Below, in pieces: positions 33 through 5,598 of a stretch of 64,000 nucleotides of DNA. Each line of letters opens with the position of its first letter. The stretch's first letter is position 1. This DNA is from an uncultured Dehalococcoidia bacterium. Lineage in GTDB: Bacteria > Chloroflexota > Dehalococcoidia > DSTF01 > JACRBR01. The stretch covers positions 6,984-70,983 of the forward strand of contig CAYWOO010000192.1 in the NCBI GenBank assembly GCA_964458665.1. Direction: 5' to 3'. The notes below the pieces were generated by a model, which did no database searches, was not told where the DNA came from, and worked only from the letters and a program-made list of their open reading frames with translations. The position numbers and the translations under genes were made by a program.

Positions 33-1916
33 ATGGAACTGATTCGATTCCAAGACGTGGCCATGGACTACGGACACCGCGAGGTGCTCCTCGACGTCAG
101 CTTTCGCATCAATGCGGGTGAGAAGGTCGGCCTCATCGGTCCGAACGGCGCGGGCAAGACATCGATCGCGCGGCTCATCGCCGGTGACGAGCCGATCGCG
201 GGCGGCGCGATCACGAGAGCTGCCGGACTGCGCGTCGGCTTCGTCCGCCAGCAGGTCGATCACGACGAGCGCGCGACGGTGATCGAGAGCGTGCTCGCGG
301 AACAGAGGCGTGCACTCGCCGCGCTGCGCGTGCACGAAGATCTCCTCGCGAACGCCACGGCCGACGATATGCAGAGCGCGTTGGACGCGTACGAAGCCGC
401 GTGCGAGGCGTTCGAACGCACTGGCAGCGACGCGCTACACGCCCGCGCGGTCGCTATGCTCGATGCGCTCGGGCTGGCCGGACGCGGCGATCAGCGAGTA
501 GGAGCGCTGTCCGGCGGCGAGAAGAACGTGCTTTCGCTGACCCAGGCGCTACTGGCGGAGCCGGACCTTCTGGTGCTCGACGAGCCAGGCAACCATCTGG
601 ACTTCGCGGGCATCGCATGGCTCGAGGGCTTCCTCAAGCGCTTCCGCGGCGCTGTGCTGCTGATCTCGCACAACCGCTACCTGCTCGACCGCGTCGTCAC
701 AAGCATTGTCCATCTGGCGGACGGTCGCGCTGATTCGTACGCCGGCAACTACTCCGCATATCGTGCGACATCGCTGCGAGCCAAGCTGGCGCAGCGCGCC
801 GACTACGTCGCCGACCAGAAGCGCCTGGTGCAGCTCGAAGAGCTGGTGAAGCGGTTCGAAGAGATTGCGCGCCGCACCGCCGACCCGTCCTGGGGCAAGC
901 GGCTACGCGCCCGCAAGTCGCAACTGAACCGCGCGCGTGAGGACGCAACGGAGAAGCCGGCTGCCGAGGCATCGAAGATCCGCATGAACTTCAGCGCCGA
1001 GGCAAGCCGCGCCGACATCGCGCTCCAGGTGCGCGGCTACAGCAAAGCATTCGGCGAACGCCAACTGTTCGACGGGGCCGAACTGGAGATCTCCTGTGGC
1101 GAGCGTGTGGCGCTGCTGGGGCCGAATGGCTGCGGCAAGACGACGTTGCTGCGCGAGATCATCGCGGACGGCGCGTGGGACCACGAAGTGCTGCGTATCG
1201 GTCCCAGCCTGCGCGTCGGGTACTGCGCGCAGGAGCAAGAAGTGCTCGACAACGAACGCACCGTCCTTGGTCAGATGGTCGCCGACGGTGTGAACAGCCG
1301 CGACCGTGCGTTCACCTTGCTGCGGCAATTCCTCTTCGTCCGGGACGATCTGGACAAACGCGTGGGCGATCTCTCCGGCGGCGAGAGGAACCGGCTGCAA
1401 CTGGCGCGCCTCATCGCCCAGCAGCCGGACTTCCTCATCCTCGACGAGCCGACGAATCATCTGGACATTCCGGCATGCGAGGCGATCGAGGAGGCGTTGA
1501 CGGAGTTCAAGGGCACGATCCTCGCCGTGTCGCACGACCGCTACTTCCTGGACAAGATCGCCGGCCGGGTCGTCGAGGTGCGCGACGGGAAGTTCGAGTC
1601 GTACTCCGGCAACTTCTCCGAATACTGGGCCGAGCATCACGAACAGCCCGCCGTCAGCACAGGCCGCATCGCCACGCGCCGTCTCGAGCGCGAGCGCGCA
1701 CCGCAACCCTCGAAACGCGCGACATCCGCGCGAGCCAGCGCGCTGCAGGCACGCATCGAAGAAGCGGAGCGCGAGCGCGGCGCGCTGGAGAAGCGCGTGT
1801 CGGATGCCTTCACGCGCGGCGATCATCGCGAAGGCACGCGCGCGGCGACGCTGTTGGAGCAGCACCGCGCGCGGCTCGACGAGCTGTACACGCGCTGGCT
1901 CGCGGAAGAATCCTAG
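33..1916 (+). CDS. ABC-F family ATPase (tandem ABC domains, no membrane domain)
   Basis: 627 aa ORF. Two Walker A motifs (GPNGAGKTS, GPNGCGKTT) and two LSGGE signatures. Charged inter-domain linker and Arg/Glu-rich C-terminal tail typical of ABC-F proteins. Confidence 0.9.
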   Translation: MELIRFQDVAMDYGHREVLLDVSFRINAGEKVGLIGPNGAGKTSIARLIAGDEPIAGGAITRAAGLRVGFVRQQVDHDERATVIESVLAEQRRALAALRVHEDLLANATADDMQSALDAYEAACEAFERTGSDALHARAVAMLDALGLAGRGDQRVGALSGGEKNVLSLTQALLAEPDLLVLDEPGNHLDFAGIAWLEGFLKRFRGAVLLISHNRYLLDRVVTSIVHLADGRADSYAGNYSAYRATSLRAKLAQRADYVADQKRLVQLEELVKRFEEIARRTADPSWGKRLRARKSQLNRAREDATEKPAAEASKIRMNFSAEASRADIALQVRGYSKAFGERQLFDGAELEISCGERVALLGPNGCGKTTLLREIIADGAWDHEVLRIGPSLRVGYCAQEQEVLDNERTVLGQMVADGVNSRDRAFTLLRQFLFVRDDLDKRVGDLSGGERNRLQLARLIAQQPDFLILDEPTNHLDIPACEAIEEALTEFKGTILAVSHDRYFLDKIAGRVVEVRDGKFESYSGNFSEYWAEHHEQPAVSTGRIATRRLERERAPQPSKRATSARASALQARIEEAERERGALEKRVSDAFTRGDHREGTRAATLLEQHRARLDELYTRWLAEES

Positions 1917-2476
1917 TTGAGGTTGTTGATCGCGACGAACGCAGCCGGCGTCATCCGTTGCAGCACCATGTACGAGCCCGTCGGTGGCTTGATCTCCAGA
2001 GTAAAGACCTGATTTGTTCCGACGGTCACGCCCGCCGCGGCAATATCGATGCTGATGCGGATGAGTTCGCCCGGTTCCAGCAGCGTGTTCGCGTTTCCGG
2101 TTATCGGCGTTGCGGTGTACGCCAGGTTGTTGATCACCGTCGCGCTGTCGATGTACGTGATCACCGTGCGGTTCGTCGCGGCGGTCGGGTCCAGATTGAC
2201 AGAGTCGCCGCCCGCGGCAAGCGTCATATCGAAATCGAGCGTCGTGACGCTGGTGCCGTTCGACGCCGCGATGACGCTGCTCGAAAGTTCCATTGTGCCG
2301 CGCGTCTTGGCGAGGCCCGCGTACACGGCCTCCTTGCCCCGCTCAGAGCTGAACAAGCCCGTGCTGAGGACAACAAACGCAAATACGGCGGCGACGACCA
2401 CGAACGCGATGAGGATGATCGCGGTCTCGAGGCCCGTGATGCCGCGTTCGTCACCCAGAGCGCGAAGCCGCCTCAT
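1913..2476 (-). CDS. Archaellin / archaeal-type pilin-like protein with class III signal peptide
   Basis: Track ORF 1913..2557 trimmed to the ATG at 2476. The N-terminus MRRLRALGDERG-ITGLETAIILIAFVVVAAVFAFVV has the pattern of archaeal flagellin N-terminal domains (compare Sulfolobus-type GLAGLDTAIILIAF). The remainder is Ser/Thr/Asn/Ala-rich and looks beta-rich. Its stop codon shares the palindrome CTAG (1913..1916) with the stop of the convergent ABC-F gene. Confidence 0.7.
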   Translation of the reverse strand: MRRLRALGDERGITGLETAIILIAFVVVAAVFAFVVLSTGLFSSERGKEAVYAGLAKTRGTMELSSSVIAASNGTSVTTLDFDMTLAAGGDSVNLDPTAATNRTVITYIDSATVINNLAYTATPITGNANTLLEPGELIRISIDIAAAGVTVGTNQVFTLEIKPPTGSYMVLQRMTPAAFVAINNLN

Positions 2477-2665
2477 GGCCGTTCGGAGCTTGCACACTGC
2501 GCCCACCTCCAACCTCGGTCGGGTCCAAATCGCCGGCAGACCGGAACATGCCCCCAACCGGAGGCGTCCACCCCTAGGTGGATTCCCTAAGAATGTTCGG
2601 CCGCATTGTCGGCGCCTTTAGGCCTGGATGAACCGATAGATTCAGAATGCGATACGACGACACGT

Positions 2666-2695
2666 TTGACACACTCGAAGGACGCTCGATAGACT
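2666..2695 (+). promoter_or_regulatory. Candidate sigma-70-type promoter for rplU-rpmA
   Basis: TTGACA at 2666..2671, an 18-nt spacer, then TAGACT at 2690..2695. It lies about 50 nt upstream of the rplU start. Confidence 0.35.
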
Positions 2696-2706
2696 GGTGA
2701 GCGATG

Positions 2707-2735
2707 CCTGCCGCACGGCGGGTATTCTGTTGTTT
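2707..2735 (+). promoter_or_regulatory. rplU leader hairpin followed by a U-rich tract (attenuator-like)
   Basis: CCTGCC-GCAC-GGCGGG stem-loop at 2707..2722, followed by TATTCTGTTGTTT. It ends immediately before the GGAGG Shine-Dalgarno at 2736..2740. Confidence 0.3.
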
Positions 2736-2745
2736 GGAGGATGCC

Positions 2746-3315
2746 GTGTTCGCGGTCGTACGCACCGGTGGCAAGCAGTATCGCGTCCAGGAAGGCCGTC
2801 CCGTCACCATCGAGCGTTTGCCGGGCGAGGCCGGGCAGAGCATCGAGTTGAATGAGGTGCTGCTCCTGGCGGACGGCGAGGACATCACCGTCGGCGCGCC
2901 AACGGTAGAAGGCGCGCGCGTACTCGGCACGATTCGCGAGCAAGGCCGCGCGAAGAAGATTCTGGTCTTCCGCTACAAGAACAAGACGCGCGCCCGCAAG
3001 AAGAACGGCCACCGTCAGCAGTTCACCACCCTGATGGTCGACGATGTGCTTGGCCCCGGCCAGCAGCCGAAGCCGAAGGCGGAGGTTGCGGCTCCCGCTG
3101 AAGAAGCGGTCGAGGCAGCGCCAACGCGCCGCCGCGGACGCAGGATCTCCGAGCCCGCGCCGGCGGCGGAACTGGCGACAAGCGACGCGGTAGACGTGAC
3201 CGAAGCATCCGACGTGACCGAAGCGCCGGATGTGACCGAGCCGAACGACGTGACCGAAACGACCGACTCCGCGCCGGCGGCAAAGCCGAAGCGGACGCGC
3301 AGGAAGGCGGAGTAG
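2746..3315 (+). CDS. rplU: 50S ribosomal protein L21 with a long acidic/Ala-Pro-rich C-terminal extension
   Basis: GTG at 2746 lies 5 nt after GGAGG. FAVVRTGGKQYRVQEG...KILVFRYKNKTRARKKNGHRQQFT is the canonical L21 core (about 100 aa). It is followed by an extra tail of about 85 aa. Confidence 0.9.
   Translation: MFAVVRTGGKQYRVQEGRPVTIERLPGEAGQSIELNEVLLLADGEDITVGAPTVEGARVLGTIREQGRAKKILVFRYKNKTRARKKNGHRQQFTTLMVDDVLGPGQQPKPKAEVAAPAEEAVEAAPTRRRGRRISEPAPAAELATSDAVDVTEASDVTEAPDVTEPNDVTETTDSAPAAKPKRTRRKAE
3193..3264 (+). repeat. 4 x 18-bp in-frame tandem repeat inside the rplU tail
   Basis: The units are gacgtgaccgaagcatcc, gacgtgaccgaagcgccg, gatgtgaccgagccgaac and gacgtgaccgaaacgacc. Together they encode (DVTExx)x4. 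Confidence 0.9.
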
Positions 3316-3321
3316 GACCCT

Positions 3322-3603
3322 ATGGCACACAAGAAAGGCGTCGGCAGCTCGCGCAATGGCCGCGACAGCAATTCGCAGCGGCTCGGCGTGAAGCGCTCGG
3401 ATGGCCAGGCAGTGCTCGCCGGTACGATCATCATGCGGCAGCGGGGTACGCGCTTCCACGCCGGACGTAATGTCGGCGTCGGCCGCGACCACACGCTGTT
3501 CGCGCTCAGCGATGGCGCTGTGAAGTTCGAGTGGTACGCCAAGGGCCGGCGCAAGAAAGTCAGCGTCTACGCCATCGAGCCGGAGGTGGCAGCCGCGAGC
3601 TAG
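3322..3603 (+). CDS. rpmA: 50S ribosomal protein L27
   Basis: [24 protein letters not shown]... is the canonical L27 N-terminus. It lies directly downstream of rplU. Confidence 0.95.
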
Positions 3604-3650
3604 TTGAGCGGGTCCGTCCATCGTCAGAACAGAGCCACCGAGAGAGTCAG

Positions 3651-3875
3651 ATGAAGCCCAAGATTCACCCCAACTACACCGAAGCCATCGTCCACTGCGC
3701 CTGCGGTAACCGCTGGGATACCCGCGCCACGAAGCCCGACCTGCACGTCGATATCTGTAGCGCTTGCCACCCGTTCTTCACCGGACAGCAACGGATCGTT
3801 GACACCGCCGGCCGCGTCGAGCGCTTCACGAAGCGCCTCGAAAAGTCCGCCGCTGTGAAGGCGAAGACGAAGTAA
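3651..3875 (+). CDS. rpmE: 50S ribosomal protein L31 (Cys-containing, Zn-type)
   Basis: MKPKIHPNY...CACG...[10 protein letters not shown]. The track ORF was trimmed to the ATG at 3651. Confidence 0.9.
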
Positions 3876-3950
3876 GCAGCTCGTAGTTGTCGTTCAGCAC
3901 GCGTCCGCCTCCAGCGGGCGCGTTTGGCATGGTCCTCCTTCACCCACCGA

Positions 3951-3982
3951 AAATGGAGCGCGGGCGTCCCGCCCGTCCCTCC
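3951..3982. repeat. Hairpin repeat family E (AATGGAGCGCGGGCGyCCCGCCCGT)
   Basis: The same element recurs at 8001..8031 and 63380..63413. It occurs in reverse orientation at 56310..56340 and 58754..58782. Confidence 0.85.
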
Positions 3983-4014
3983 GCGTCCTCCAACACCGCA
4001 CCTATACTGCGCCC

Positions 4015-5598
4015 ATGACCGACCTCATCCTTCGCAACGCGCAGATCTGGACCGGCGACGCCACCGCGCCGTATGCCGATACCGCGATCGTCCGTGACGG
4101 GCGTTTCGTCTTCGTCGGACGCTCGCAGGATGCGGCGGCTCCGTCCGACGTGGACGTGTTCGACGCGGGCGGACGACTCGTTCTGCCCGGCTTCACCGAT
4201 AGCCACGCGCACCTGCTCGGCACTGGCCTCGCGATGCAGTCGGTCGATCTGAAAGGCGTGCCGAGCGTGGCCGAGGCGCTACAGCGGGTCGCCGAGCGCG
4301 TCGCTGTATCGCCGGAAGGCGCCTGGGTGCGCGGCGCGGGTTGGGACCAGCACGACTGGCCGGGCGCGCGCTTCCCGCATCGGCGCGAACTCGACACCAT
4401 CGCGCCGGAGCATCCGGTCGTGCTTACGCACACCTCCGGCCACTGCGTCTGGGTGAACAGCGCGGCGCTCCGCGCCGCCGCCATTACCGCAGCGACCATC
4501 GCGCCGACGGGCGGAGCGATTGACATTGGCGACGACGGCGCGCCCACGGGCATCCTGCGCGACAACGCGTCGCGCCTCATCAGCGATGTCGCGCCGAAGC
4601 TGGCACGGAACGAGCGCATCACCACGATGGAGCAGGCGATCGCACACGCGCACAGCCTCGGTGTAACCGGCGCGCACGCGATGGATGTCGGGCGCGGCGA
4701 ACTGCAGGCATTGCACGCGCTCAACGACTCCGGACGGCTGCGATTGCGCGTACGGCCCTTCATGTCGGCTGGCGCGCTGGACGAGTGGTTCGACCGCAAC
4801 CTGGCTACGGGCGACGGCGGCGATATGCTGCGCATCGGCGGCGTGAAGTTCTTCGCCGACGGCGCGCTCGGCTCCATGACGTCATGGATGCTCGAACCGT
4901 GCGAGGGCAGCGATGACACCGGCCTGGCACTCCAGCCGGCCGGCGAACTGGAGCGCGACGTGCGCCGCTGTCTCGAACACGGCCTGGCGACCGCCATCCA
5001 CGCAATCGGCGACCGCGCGAACCGCGAAGTGCTCGACATCATCGCCCGGACGCAGAACGTCGCCCCGGATCTGCCGCGACGCATCGAGCACGCGCAACTG
5101 CTGGCGGCGCCCGACATCGCACGCTTCGCCTACTACGGCGTGACGGCATCGGTGCAGCCGATCCACGCGACGCAGGATATGGCGAAGGTCGATCGGGCAT
5201 GGGGCGCCCGCGGCGTCGGCGCCTACGCGTTCGCGTCGCTGCGCAGCCTGGGCGTCAATCTCGCATTCGGGTCCGATACGCCCGTCGAGACGATGGATCC
5301 GCTCGCCGGCGTACAGGCCGCCGTCACGCGCCGCAACGCCGCGGGCGAGCCGCCCGGCGGCTGGTATCCGCAACAGCGACTGACTGCCATGGAAGCCATC
5401 GCGGCGTACACAACGGGTGCAGCCGAGGCCGTGCGCGAGAGCGCGACCCTCGGCCGGATCGCGCCCGGCTACCACGCGGACTTCGTCCTGCTTTCCGAAA
5501 ACATCCTCACGGCCGCCGATCCGATGCGCATCGCGGATGCGCGCGTCGAAGCAACGGTGGTCGGCGGCGAAATCGTCTATCGGCGATCTGCCGTGTGA
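4015..5598 (+). CDS. Amidohydrolase-family metal-dependent hydrolase (YtcJ-like)
   Basis: 527 aa. N-terminus LILRNAQIWTGD...LPGFTDSHAHL carries the HxH metal motif. The C-terminal GSDTPVE and ADFVLL motifs are typical of Amidohydro_3 proteins. Confidence 0.8.
   Translation: MTDLILRNAQIWTGDATAPYADTAIVRDGRFVFVGRSQDAAAPSDVDVFDAGGRLVLPGFTDSHAHLLGTGLAMQSVDLKGVPSVAEALQRVAERVAVSPEGAWVRGAGWDQHDWPGARFPHRRELDTIAPEHPVVLTHTSGHCVWVNSAALRAAAITAATIAPTGGAIDIGDDGAPTGILRDNASRLISDVAPKLARNERITTMEQAIAHAHSLGVTGAHAMDVGRGELQALHALNDSGRLRLRVRPFMSAGALDEWFDRNLATGDGGDMLRIGGVKFFADGALGSMTSWMLEPCEGSDDTGLALQPAGELERDVRRCLEHGLATAIHAIGDRANREVLDIIARTQNVAPDLPRRIEHAQLLAAPDIARFAYYGVTASVQPIHATQDMAKVDRAWGARGVGAYAFASLRSLGVNLAFGSDTPVETMDPLAGVQAAVTRRNAAGEPPGGWYPQQRLTAMEAIAAYTTGAAEAVRESATLGRIAPGYHADFVLLSENILTAADPMRIADARVEATVVGGEIVYRRSAV

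Follow-up and report, generated by a model that had tools for sequence, protein, structure and literature searches.

An unlinked archaellin gene beside rplU, with a putative sigma-28-type promoter, in a Dehalococcoidia-type Chloroflexota genome

The DNA analyzed here, a 64-kb stretch to which we refer as the window, corresponds to C192:6984-70983 of genome G000, a Dehalococcoidia-type Chloroflexota assembly of 3.27 Mb in 259 contigs (87% complete, 65% guanine-plus-cytosine (GC) content). Near its beginning, an open reading frame (ORF) on the minus strand encodes an archaellin (ArlB), the filament subunit of an archaellum. The frame is open throughout and terminates at 1913 (stop codon TAG at 1915..1913), tail to tail with an ABC-F ATPase gene and divergent from the ribosomal-protein genes rplU-rpmA-rpmE. 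Translated from the ATG at 2476, it reads MRRLRALGDERG-ITGLETAIILIAFVVVAAVFAFVVLSTG..., also printed as MRRLRALGDERGITGLETAIILIAFVVVAAVFAFVVLSTG..., and a GTG at 2497, 7 codons further upstream, is the better supported start. A Shine-Dalgarno (SD) sequence GGAGG (2510..2506) lies 8 nt before this GTG, whereas ATG 2476 has none. In the upstream alignment of 14 orthologues, each start codon follows a GGAGG-type SD sequence by 6-9 nt and aligns with GTG 2497. Because the SD sequence and the start codons of the orthologues coincide at this position, we took GTG 2497 as the start, so that the archaellin gene likely comprises 194 codons and ATG 2476 codes for an internal Met. From this start, the leader has 19 residues, MCKLRTAMRRLRALGDERG. 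The features of the locus are compiled in Table 1.

Table 1. Positions of the genes and predicted elements at the archaellin locus, in window coordinates
Feature	Position	Strand	Basis or remark
arlB (pre-archaellin) coding sequence	1913..2497	-	ORF, PF01917, 9i5h match, orthologue starts and SD sequence
Class III signal peptide with basic leader and terminal Gly	2441..2497	-	TIGR02537, 9i5h alignment
Predicted cleavage site, G 2443..2441 / I 2440..2438	2443..2438	-	Homology to the L. aerophila filament
N-terminal hydrophobic α-helix of the mature archaellin, filament core	2309..2440	-	Model, paralogue alignment, invariant columns G12-F42
C-terminal β-sandwich globular domain, outer filament surface	1916..2308	-	Model, fold matches
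Predicted sigma-28 (FliA/WhiG)-type promoter	2594..2621	-	Orthologue alignment, consensus match
-35 element CTAAAG	2621..2616	-	15-nt spacer after TAAA
-10 element GCCGAACA	2601..2594	-	Ends 97 nt before GTG 2497
Predicted 5' untranslated leader	2498..2590	-	Alignment, fold
Leader hairpin CCACC-TAGG-GGTGG	2581..2568	-	CCCCTAGGG-like block conserved in orthologues
ABC-F ATPase gene, convergent	33..1916	+	Context only, outside the archaellum system
rplU-rpmA-rpmE ribosomal-protein genes, divergent	2704..3875	+	Conserved syntenic neighbor; context only

Profile searches place the protein in the archaellin family, as the original prediction had proposed on account of its class III signal peptide. 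Pfam PF01917 (Arch_flagellin) matches with 87.3 bits (cut-off 29.5, E 1.9e-24) over model positions 1-161 of 162, and TIGR02537, which describes the N-terminal domain of archaellins and type IV pilins, matches with 36.8 bits (cut-off 20). Neither Flp (PF04964) nor a pilin family with an N-methylation motif was matched at E<=1 in the Pfam and NCBIfam profile searches, and the sole further Pfam match, DUF4244 (E 0.028), stayed under its threshold; the gene is not that of an ordinary bacterial pilin. The closest solved relative found with phmmer is the bacterial archaellum of Litorilinea aerophila (PDB code 9i5h; E 1.2e-34, residues 13-186), and the identity to L. aerophila ArlB over the mature chain amounts to 46%.

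The 9i5h chain (ITALETAIIL) begins with an Ile that aligns with Ile13 of the window protein (numbered, like Gly12 and the sequons below, from ATG 2476), and the study of the L. aerophila archaellum gives that same cleavage site (PMC12488501). Because the experimentally seen N terminus of the L. aerophila filament aligns at this position, cleavage of the window protein is predicted to occur after Gly12, leaving ITGLETAI as the mature N terminus. Across 30 homologues, Gly12 and residues 14-42 show little or no variation. In an AlphaFold2 model built with 30 homologues, which has a mean predicted local distance difference test score (pLDDT) of 84.3, residues 15-56 form an α-helix that is followed by a β-sandwich of nine strands. 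The pLDDT means of 10-residue blocks along the helix are mostly ∼76-93, with ∼69 at the C-terminal end. When the model was compared with the PDB by Foldseek, ranks 1-17 were all taken by archaellins (9i5h, 7txi, 7ofq, 9eq7, 5tfy, and others), with 9i5h as the top match (E 1.3e-15); the archaellum stator proteins FlaF and FlaG came next, and no pilin structure was found among the top 20 matches. The two checks on the protein suggested by the original prediction, a profile search with PF01917 and TIGR02537 and a prediction of the filament-type fold, both support its archaellin reading. Judged by its sequence and its modeled fold, the gene product is a bona fide archaellin (ArlB).

The β-sandwich contains two N-X-S/T sequons, N73 and N102, and differs from L. 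aerophila ArlB at the metal site. Two Glu of the four ligands are kept in the window protein, one Asp falls within a 5-residue deletion that shortens the loop, and the other Asp, the equivalent of D127, is replaced by Asn (GNANT). The GNAN motif is constant in the orthologues of the window gene; the main-locus paralogues described below have GN(S/G)D.

The original prediction had called the gene solitary. This holds for the window, in whose 64 kb no ArlI, ArlJ, or prepilin-peptidase gene was found, either in the ORF list read by eye or in the whole-genome searches, but not for the genome, where the searches located the ArlJ and prepilin-peptidase genes on contigs other than that of the window. 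The end of C154 carries the main archaellum locus, in which arlB1 (cut by the contig end), arlB2, arlB3, a gene for an ArlCDE-like coiled-coil protein, arlG, arlF, and arlJ follow one another on one strand. The order of arlG and arlF is of the arl2 type. ArlJ matches NF004703 with an E value of 3.6e-135, ArlG and ArlF have their own families as best matches, and arlJ, arlF, arlG, and arlCDE are all intact. A genome search with PF01917 (E<=0.01) yielded seven matches, namely the four archaellins, ArlG, ArlF, and a spurious one on C47, which we discarded as an Ala/Thr-rich stretch in the wrong frame and not a gene. A single Peptidase_A24 gene is present in the genome, on C218; of PilD, an ORF on C146 (9714-10076) encodes the Cys-rich N-terminal domain without the A24 domain. 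The only T2SSE-family ATPases of the assembly are PilB in the type IVa pilus operon (C146) and TadA in the Tad operon (C42). Hence, the genome-wide search for assembly machinery that the original prediction had recommended was successful for arlJ, the tad and pil ATPases, and the A24 peptidase, but not for arlH and arlI, to which we return below.

The bacterial archaellum of Chloroflexota is already known. It was first described in 2025 with the structure of L. aerophila ArlB (9i5h) and the archaellum clusters of the phylum (Sivabalasarma et al. 2025, Nat Microbiol, PMC12488501). The system of the window genome shares with it the protein family, the cleavage motif Gly/Ile-Thr-x-Leu-Glu, the fold of helix and β-sandwich, the phylum, the arl2 order with arlG before arlF, the position of arlCDE in the main locus, a peptidase gene outside this locus, and a genome in which no FlhA gene was detected. 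In the published systems, all archaellum genes stay in one locus, and promoters and sigma factors are not discussed (PMC12488501). In contrast, the system of the family described here is distributed over at least three transcription units, namely a main locus that lacks arlHI, an arlHI module at another place, and the orphan arlB beside rplU.

The original prediction had pointed to archaellum-like gene sets in some Chloroflexota, and the host is of this phylum; 71 of 71 related loci come from Chloroflexota metagenome-assembled genomes (MAGs), most of them labeled Dehalococcoidia. Of the 301 genomes sampled from the class, 66 encode archaellins, as do 10 of the 11 from the family; these counts are consistent with a published survey that lists 243 archaellum-encoding Chloroflexota. 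The window arlB is 61-66% identical to arlB1-3, and the first ∼45 mature residues are nearly identical. In ∼16 genomes, arlB divergently adjoins rplU-rpmA-rpmE, often with an ABC-F gene convergent on its other side. A maximum-likelihood tree of 74 archaellins resolves the rplU-linked copies into two clades with Shimodaira–Hasegawa-like approximate likelihood ratio test (SH-aLRT) values of 99 and 100, and both are nested in a 27-sequence clade (SH-aLRT 99) together with the main-locus archaellins of the same genomes. By its place in this tree and its synteny, the window gene is a fourth, unlinked arlB paralogue that stems from an old duplication and is vertically inherited. The pairwise ratio of nonsynonymous to synonymous substitution rates (dN/dS) of the mature part ranges from 0.04 to 0.27 against 14 orthologues and is 0.037, at a dS of 0.57, against G001, the closest relative. 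The window arlB is under strong purifying selection, and these ratios disfavor the idea that it is a relic.

Besides the SD sequence, only three blocks are conserved upstream of the orthologues: CTAAAG, GCCGAcAAT 14 nt further on, and a palindrome like CCCCTAGGG. The consensus of flagellar and WhiG promoters read by sigma-28 consists of a -35 element TAAA and a -10 element GCCGATAA, and a search for sites with up to two mismatches to it has revealed the WhiG promoters of the Rubrobacter type IV pilus genes (PMC8325347). Following that study, we scored TAAA/GCCGATAA sites with <=2 mismatches in total, a spacer of ∼15 nt, and a position within 200 nt of the start (PMC8325347). The window promoter, TAAA-N15-GCCGAACA, has two mismatches. 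A site of this kind precedes 14 of the 15 clade-A orphan arlB genes (pattern TAAA-N15-GCCGAnnA), 1 of the 32 main-locus arlB genes, and none of the 21 other solitary arlB copies, and it is present in 0 of 400 random 260-nt windows of the window genome. In 36 genomes of the family, a search for the exact pattern CTAAAG-N14-GCCGAHMA gave 17 hits, compared with 4 for the reversed control; 12 of the 17 stand before archaellin genes, 1 before arlH, and 1 before pilA. With <=2 mismatches, the motif is also found in all arlH upstream regions examined (6/6), which belong to the relocated arlHI operons of relatives. The window arlB appears to be driven by a promoter of the bacterial flagellar sigma-28 type.

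The motif also occurs elsewhere in the window genome. In the region C146:1793-2229, the perfect consensus, CTAAAG-N14-GCCGATAA, is situated ∼75 nt upstream of the type IVa pilin gene pilA; this pilin (MLKKLNSEQG/FTLTELL) heads a pilA-pilB-pilC-minor pilin-pilMNO operon. A site TAAAG-N15-GCCGATCT (C42:14476-14503, minus strand) is located in the Tad operon between a vWA-FHA gene and a gene for a BldN-like extracytoplasmic function (ECF) sigma factor. This site may place the Tad operon in the same regulon or may have arisen by chance.

The promoter could be read by either of two native sigma factors, both of which match the WhiG/FliA families best. One is encoded at C126:29034-29969 (192.8 bits with NF004935, 188.5 bits with TIGR02479), the other at C42:60271-61245 (181.1 bits with TIGR02479), followed by the gene of an HD-GYP protein. 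The C126 gene lies within 1.5 kb of a CsrA homologue (C126:29034-31434; TIGR00202, 65.7 bits, cut-off 70.1). Translational control of the archaellin of the CsrA/FliW type was considered and rejected: CsrA and GGA motifs in the leader exist, but a gene for FliW, like one for FlhA, the flagellar export gate, was not detected in the genome, and the overall fold of the leader is no more stable than that of shuffled sequence (z -1.1). We likewise rejected the FliA on C210 as the native sigma-28, although it is the sole match above the TIGR02479 cut-off (258 bits). C210 is a 10.8-kb contig with 57.7% GC, compared with 65-66% elsewhere, and carries flhG directly upstream of fliA as well as transposase-like ORFs. 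Because of this composition, the flhG neighbor, the transposase-like ORFs, and a genome without FlhA, C210 is probably a binning contaminant from a flagellated organism.

We consider it highly probable that the window gene is a functional archaellin, the fourth and unlinked filament-subunit paralogue of a bacterial archaellum in Dehalococcoidia-type Chloroflexota. This reading starts from the family, fold, cleavage-site homology, partner genes, orthology, and selection reported above. The pre-protein would be inserted in the membrane, where the single A24 prepilin peptidase encoded on C218 would cut the basic leader after the Gly. The ArlJ platform, the ArlI ATPase, and ArlH would then add the subunit at the base of the filament. 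There, its N-terminal helix would pack in the core as in the three clustered paralogues, so that all four could co-polymerize, and the divergent β-sandwich would form, and change, the filament surface. One of the two native FliA/WhiG-like sigma factors would recognize the sigma-28/WhiG-type promoter and start transcription there. The same promoter class is predicted before the relocated arlHI of relatives and before pilA in the window genome, and not before the main-locus arlB. The orphan archaellin would thus be co-regulated with the motor ATPase, separately from the main operon, and could act as an alternative, a minor, a condition-specific, or the principal subunit.

Sets of several archaellins are familiar from archaea. 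The Methanococcus archaellins FlaB1, FlaB2, and FlaB3 are major and minor subunits, and Haloarcula marismortui possesses archaellin ecoparalogues at separate loci or replicons. As in the paralogues described here, an identical N-terminal core helix is combined with divergent surface domains in these sets, and some copies lie off the motor operon and are expressed differently. The case of the window differs by its bacterial host and by an unlinked copy with bacterial-type regulatory signals. The proposed promoter also has the TAAA-N15-GCCGATAA layout of the late promoters that FliA, SigD, and WhiG recognize at fliC/hag, at motor genes, and at the Rubrobacter pilus genes (PMC8325347). As in such sigma-28 systems, it would precede a filament-subunit gene, motor genes (arlHI of relatives), and pilA, and the genome codes for candidate sigma factors of the FliA/WhiG family. 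Unlike in flagellar systems, the genes under its putative control are archaeal in origin and unrelated to flagellin, and the pairing of sigma factor and promoter is drawn from sequence; FlhA and FliW were not detected, and no anti-sigma factor was identified, FlgM not having been searched for.

Several observations speak against the reading proposed here. In the 87%-complete assembly, the whole-genome search found neither ArlH nor ArlI, and both are likewise absent from the assembly of G001, so that the complete archaellum machine is inferred rather than seen. The link to sigma-28 is drawn from the conservation of the motif, which in the clade-B orthologues is present at the homologous position in a weaker form with 3 mismatches. 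A genome-wide scan with a position weight matrix (PWM) brought up few further convincing sites. Among these sites, the one at pilA and possibly one in the flp region look real; additional ones on C74 and C123 lie inside coding regions, are probably chance matches, and were rejected. The TIGR02479 scores of both native sigma factors fall just under the cut-off of 189.6. Finally, among the 301 genomes of the class, orthologues of the C126 sigma factor are confined to the order, are present throughout it, occur also in three members without archaellins, and are missing from most other archaellated families. A co-occurrence of this sigma factor with archaellins across the class is therefore unsupported. 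Because it is present in genomes lacking archaellins and absent from most archaellated families, the C126 sigma factor would be a general appendage or lifestyle factor that was recruited here and not a dedicated regulator of the archaellum.

The distribution of arlH and arlI in the relatives bears on the first of these points. Of 21 relatives searched for ArlI, 19 have it in full length and G006 has a copy broken by 2 in-frame TGA codons; ArlI is missing only from the window genome and G001. In deeper relatives (L048, L054, L055, and others), arlF-arlH-arlI-arlJ are contiguous. The closest relatives have arlF directly next to arlJ, with arlH-arlI located elsewhere as a two-gene module that is followed by the gene of a small acidic protein. 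In G002, G003, G010, and G020, this module is flanked by a CoA-ligase-like gene on one side and a DUF35/thiolase pair on the other, and the orthologues of these flanking genes in the window genome (84-95% identity) are cut by the ends of C182 (7882) and C103 (21939). At the site where synteny predicts arlHI, the window genome seems to have an assembly gap and not a deletion junction. Since this site falls between the contig ends of C182 and C103, the absence of arlHI is no evidence of loss, and both genes are presumed to lie in the gap. A location downstream of nadE, as in G011, was rejected: the matching place in C28 holds other genes, and the synteny is not conserved. The main locus, in turn, is cut at arlB1 by the end of C154. 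Only one public contig (Logan SRR9952630) encodes the exact arlB2 protein; it likewise breaks off between arlB1 and arlB2, and the conserved 5' ends of the arlB paralogues probably disrupt assemblies at this point.

With respect to regulation, TAAAG-N-GCCGAnnA could also be the site of another regulator or sigma factor, for example of a BldN-like ECF sigma factor, which would leave the role as an archaellin unaffected. We regard this as the less probable interpretation, yet as one to be taken seriously: the ECF-like sigma gene at C42:14503 is preceded by a similar motif, the FliA/WhiG-like sigma factors score slightly under their family cut-off, and their distribution across the class does not track the presence of archaella. 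On the other hand, ECF promoters normally have AAC / CGT-type elements. The spacing and both hexamers agree with the published flagellar/WhiG consensus with at most two mismatches, the site at pilA is a perfect match, and control of pil genes by WhiG is documented in Rubrobacter (PMC8325347).

It is very unlikely that the gene encodes the pilin of a separate, non-rotating adhesion filament of archaeal or Tad-like type that is built by the Tad machinery (C42) or by that for type IVa pili (C146). Both systems are present in the genome, the window arlB and pilA have the promoter type in common, and the mature N terminus carries a Glu at +5 like bacterial type IV pilins. With Flp/Tad and type IVa pilins, the window protein shares moreover a signal peptide that would be cut after Gly by an A24 peptidase and a hydrophobic helix. 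Against this, it matches no pilin family, has the length and the β-sandwich of an archaellin, and finds its best sequence and fold matches among archaellum filaments and not among pili. The gene is nested in the archaellin clade beside the main-locus arlB genes, with which its product shares almost all of the first ∼45 mature residues, and a promoter of the type shared with pilA is also predicted before arlHI in relatives. Moreover, the Tad and type IVa machines have their own Flp pilins (C153) and PilA (C146). The former are encoded by two tandem genes of 78 amino acids each (C153 ∼2494-2730 and 3071-3307; ...EEGQTLAEYGLIMAVIAVAVVV...), far from the Tad operon on C42. Least likely of all is that the archaellin duplication left behind a decaying or silent gene, without a role since the species lost its ATPase genes, as might be suggested by its distance from the motor locus and by the lack of ArlI and ArlH in the assemblies of the window genome and G001: the low dN/dS against G001 and the 14 orthologues, the conserved frame, SD sequence, promoter block, and synteny, the intact arlJ, arlF, arlG, arlCDE, and other three arlB genes, and an arlHI site that is an assembly gap with no deletion junction all contradict it.

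As a probably functional archaellin gene, the window arlB extends what is known of the bacterial archaellum. New are the three-way split of the gene set, the syntenically fixed orphan arlB, and the sigma-28-type promoters on the detached parts, and our literature search found no paper that ties bacterial archaella to a sigma factor. It is an evenly balanced question whether this Dehalococcoidia family broke up its horizontally acquired archaellum into separate transcription units and brought it under the control of a bacterial flagellar-type sigma factor. In this scenario, which is as likely as not, "late gene" promoters of the sigma-28/WhiG type, like that of the native type IV pilin gene, would have been gained by the orphan arlB and by the relocated arlHI, and the main arlB-arlCDE-arlG-arlF-arlJ operon would have kept another promoter. 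A rotary machine of archaeal origin would then obey the same regulatory logic as bacterial flagellin and motor genes, and the rplU-linked archaellin would be a filament subunit that is switched on together with the ATPase. With this locus, the idea that regulation is domesticated after transfer between domains can be tested on a concrete example. In practical terms, the archaellum genes of Chloroflexota need not share one locus, which matters when completeness is scored on single loci, for example with MacSyFinder. An "orphan" archaellin in Dehalococcoidia MAGs would, from the sequences compared here, be annotated as normal and functional and not as an artifact.

The convergent stop codons of arlB and the ABC-F gene (TAG at 1914..1916) have the palindrome CTAG (1913..1916) in common, exactly as the original prediction had described, though this is not a conserved feature. 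In the orthologous loci, the tail-to-tail distance of the two genes varies from -8 to +226 bp, and because the overlap is not conserved there, it is probably incidental. On the other side of arlB, rplU possesses a sigma-70-like promoter TTGACA-18-TAGACT (2666..2695) and a conserved, perfect leader hairpin CCTGCCG-n-CGGCAGG (2703..2726); an Rfam scan of window positions 1500-4200 gave no match. The listed span of rplU is 2704-3315, and its real start is probably a GTG near 2746 (VFAVVRTGGKQYRV). The encoded L21 protein has a C-terminal extension of ∼100 residues that is rich in Ala, Pro, and Glu and contains DVTE repeats.

In the main locus, arlJ is followed by genes for an acidic protein of 135 residues and for a peptidoglycan hydrolase of the Amidase_3 family (N-acetylmuramoyl-L-alanine amidase) (C154:34677-36118, corresponding to L008 9678-11119, minus strand). 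A small acidic protein (∼125-135 residues, no family match) and Amidase_3 also follow arlJ in L036, L037, L048, and L054-L062, and the arrangement holds in the window genome and both related clades. The Amidase_3 could be a bacterial addition to the archaellum locus that lets the machine pass the wall. In G007, the relocated arlH-arlI module (contig C254; L091 1801-7340) is only ∼2 kb away from rplU-rpmA, and archaellum genes may have come to lie near rplU repeatedly in this family.

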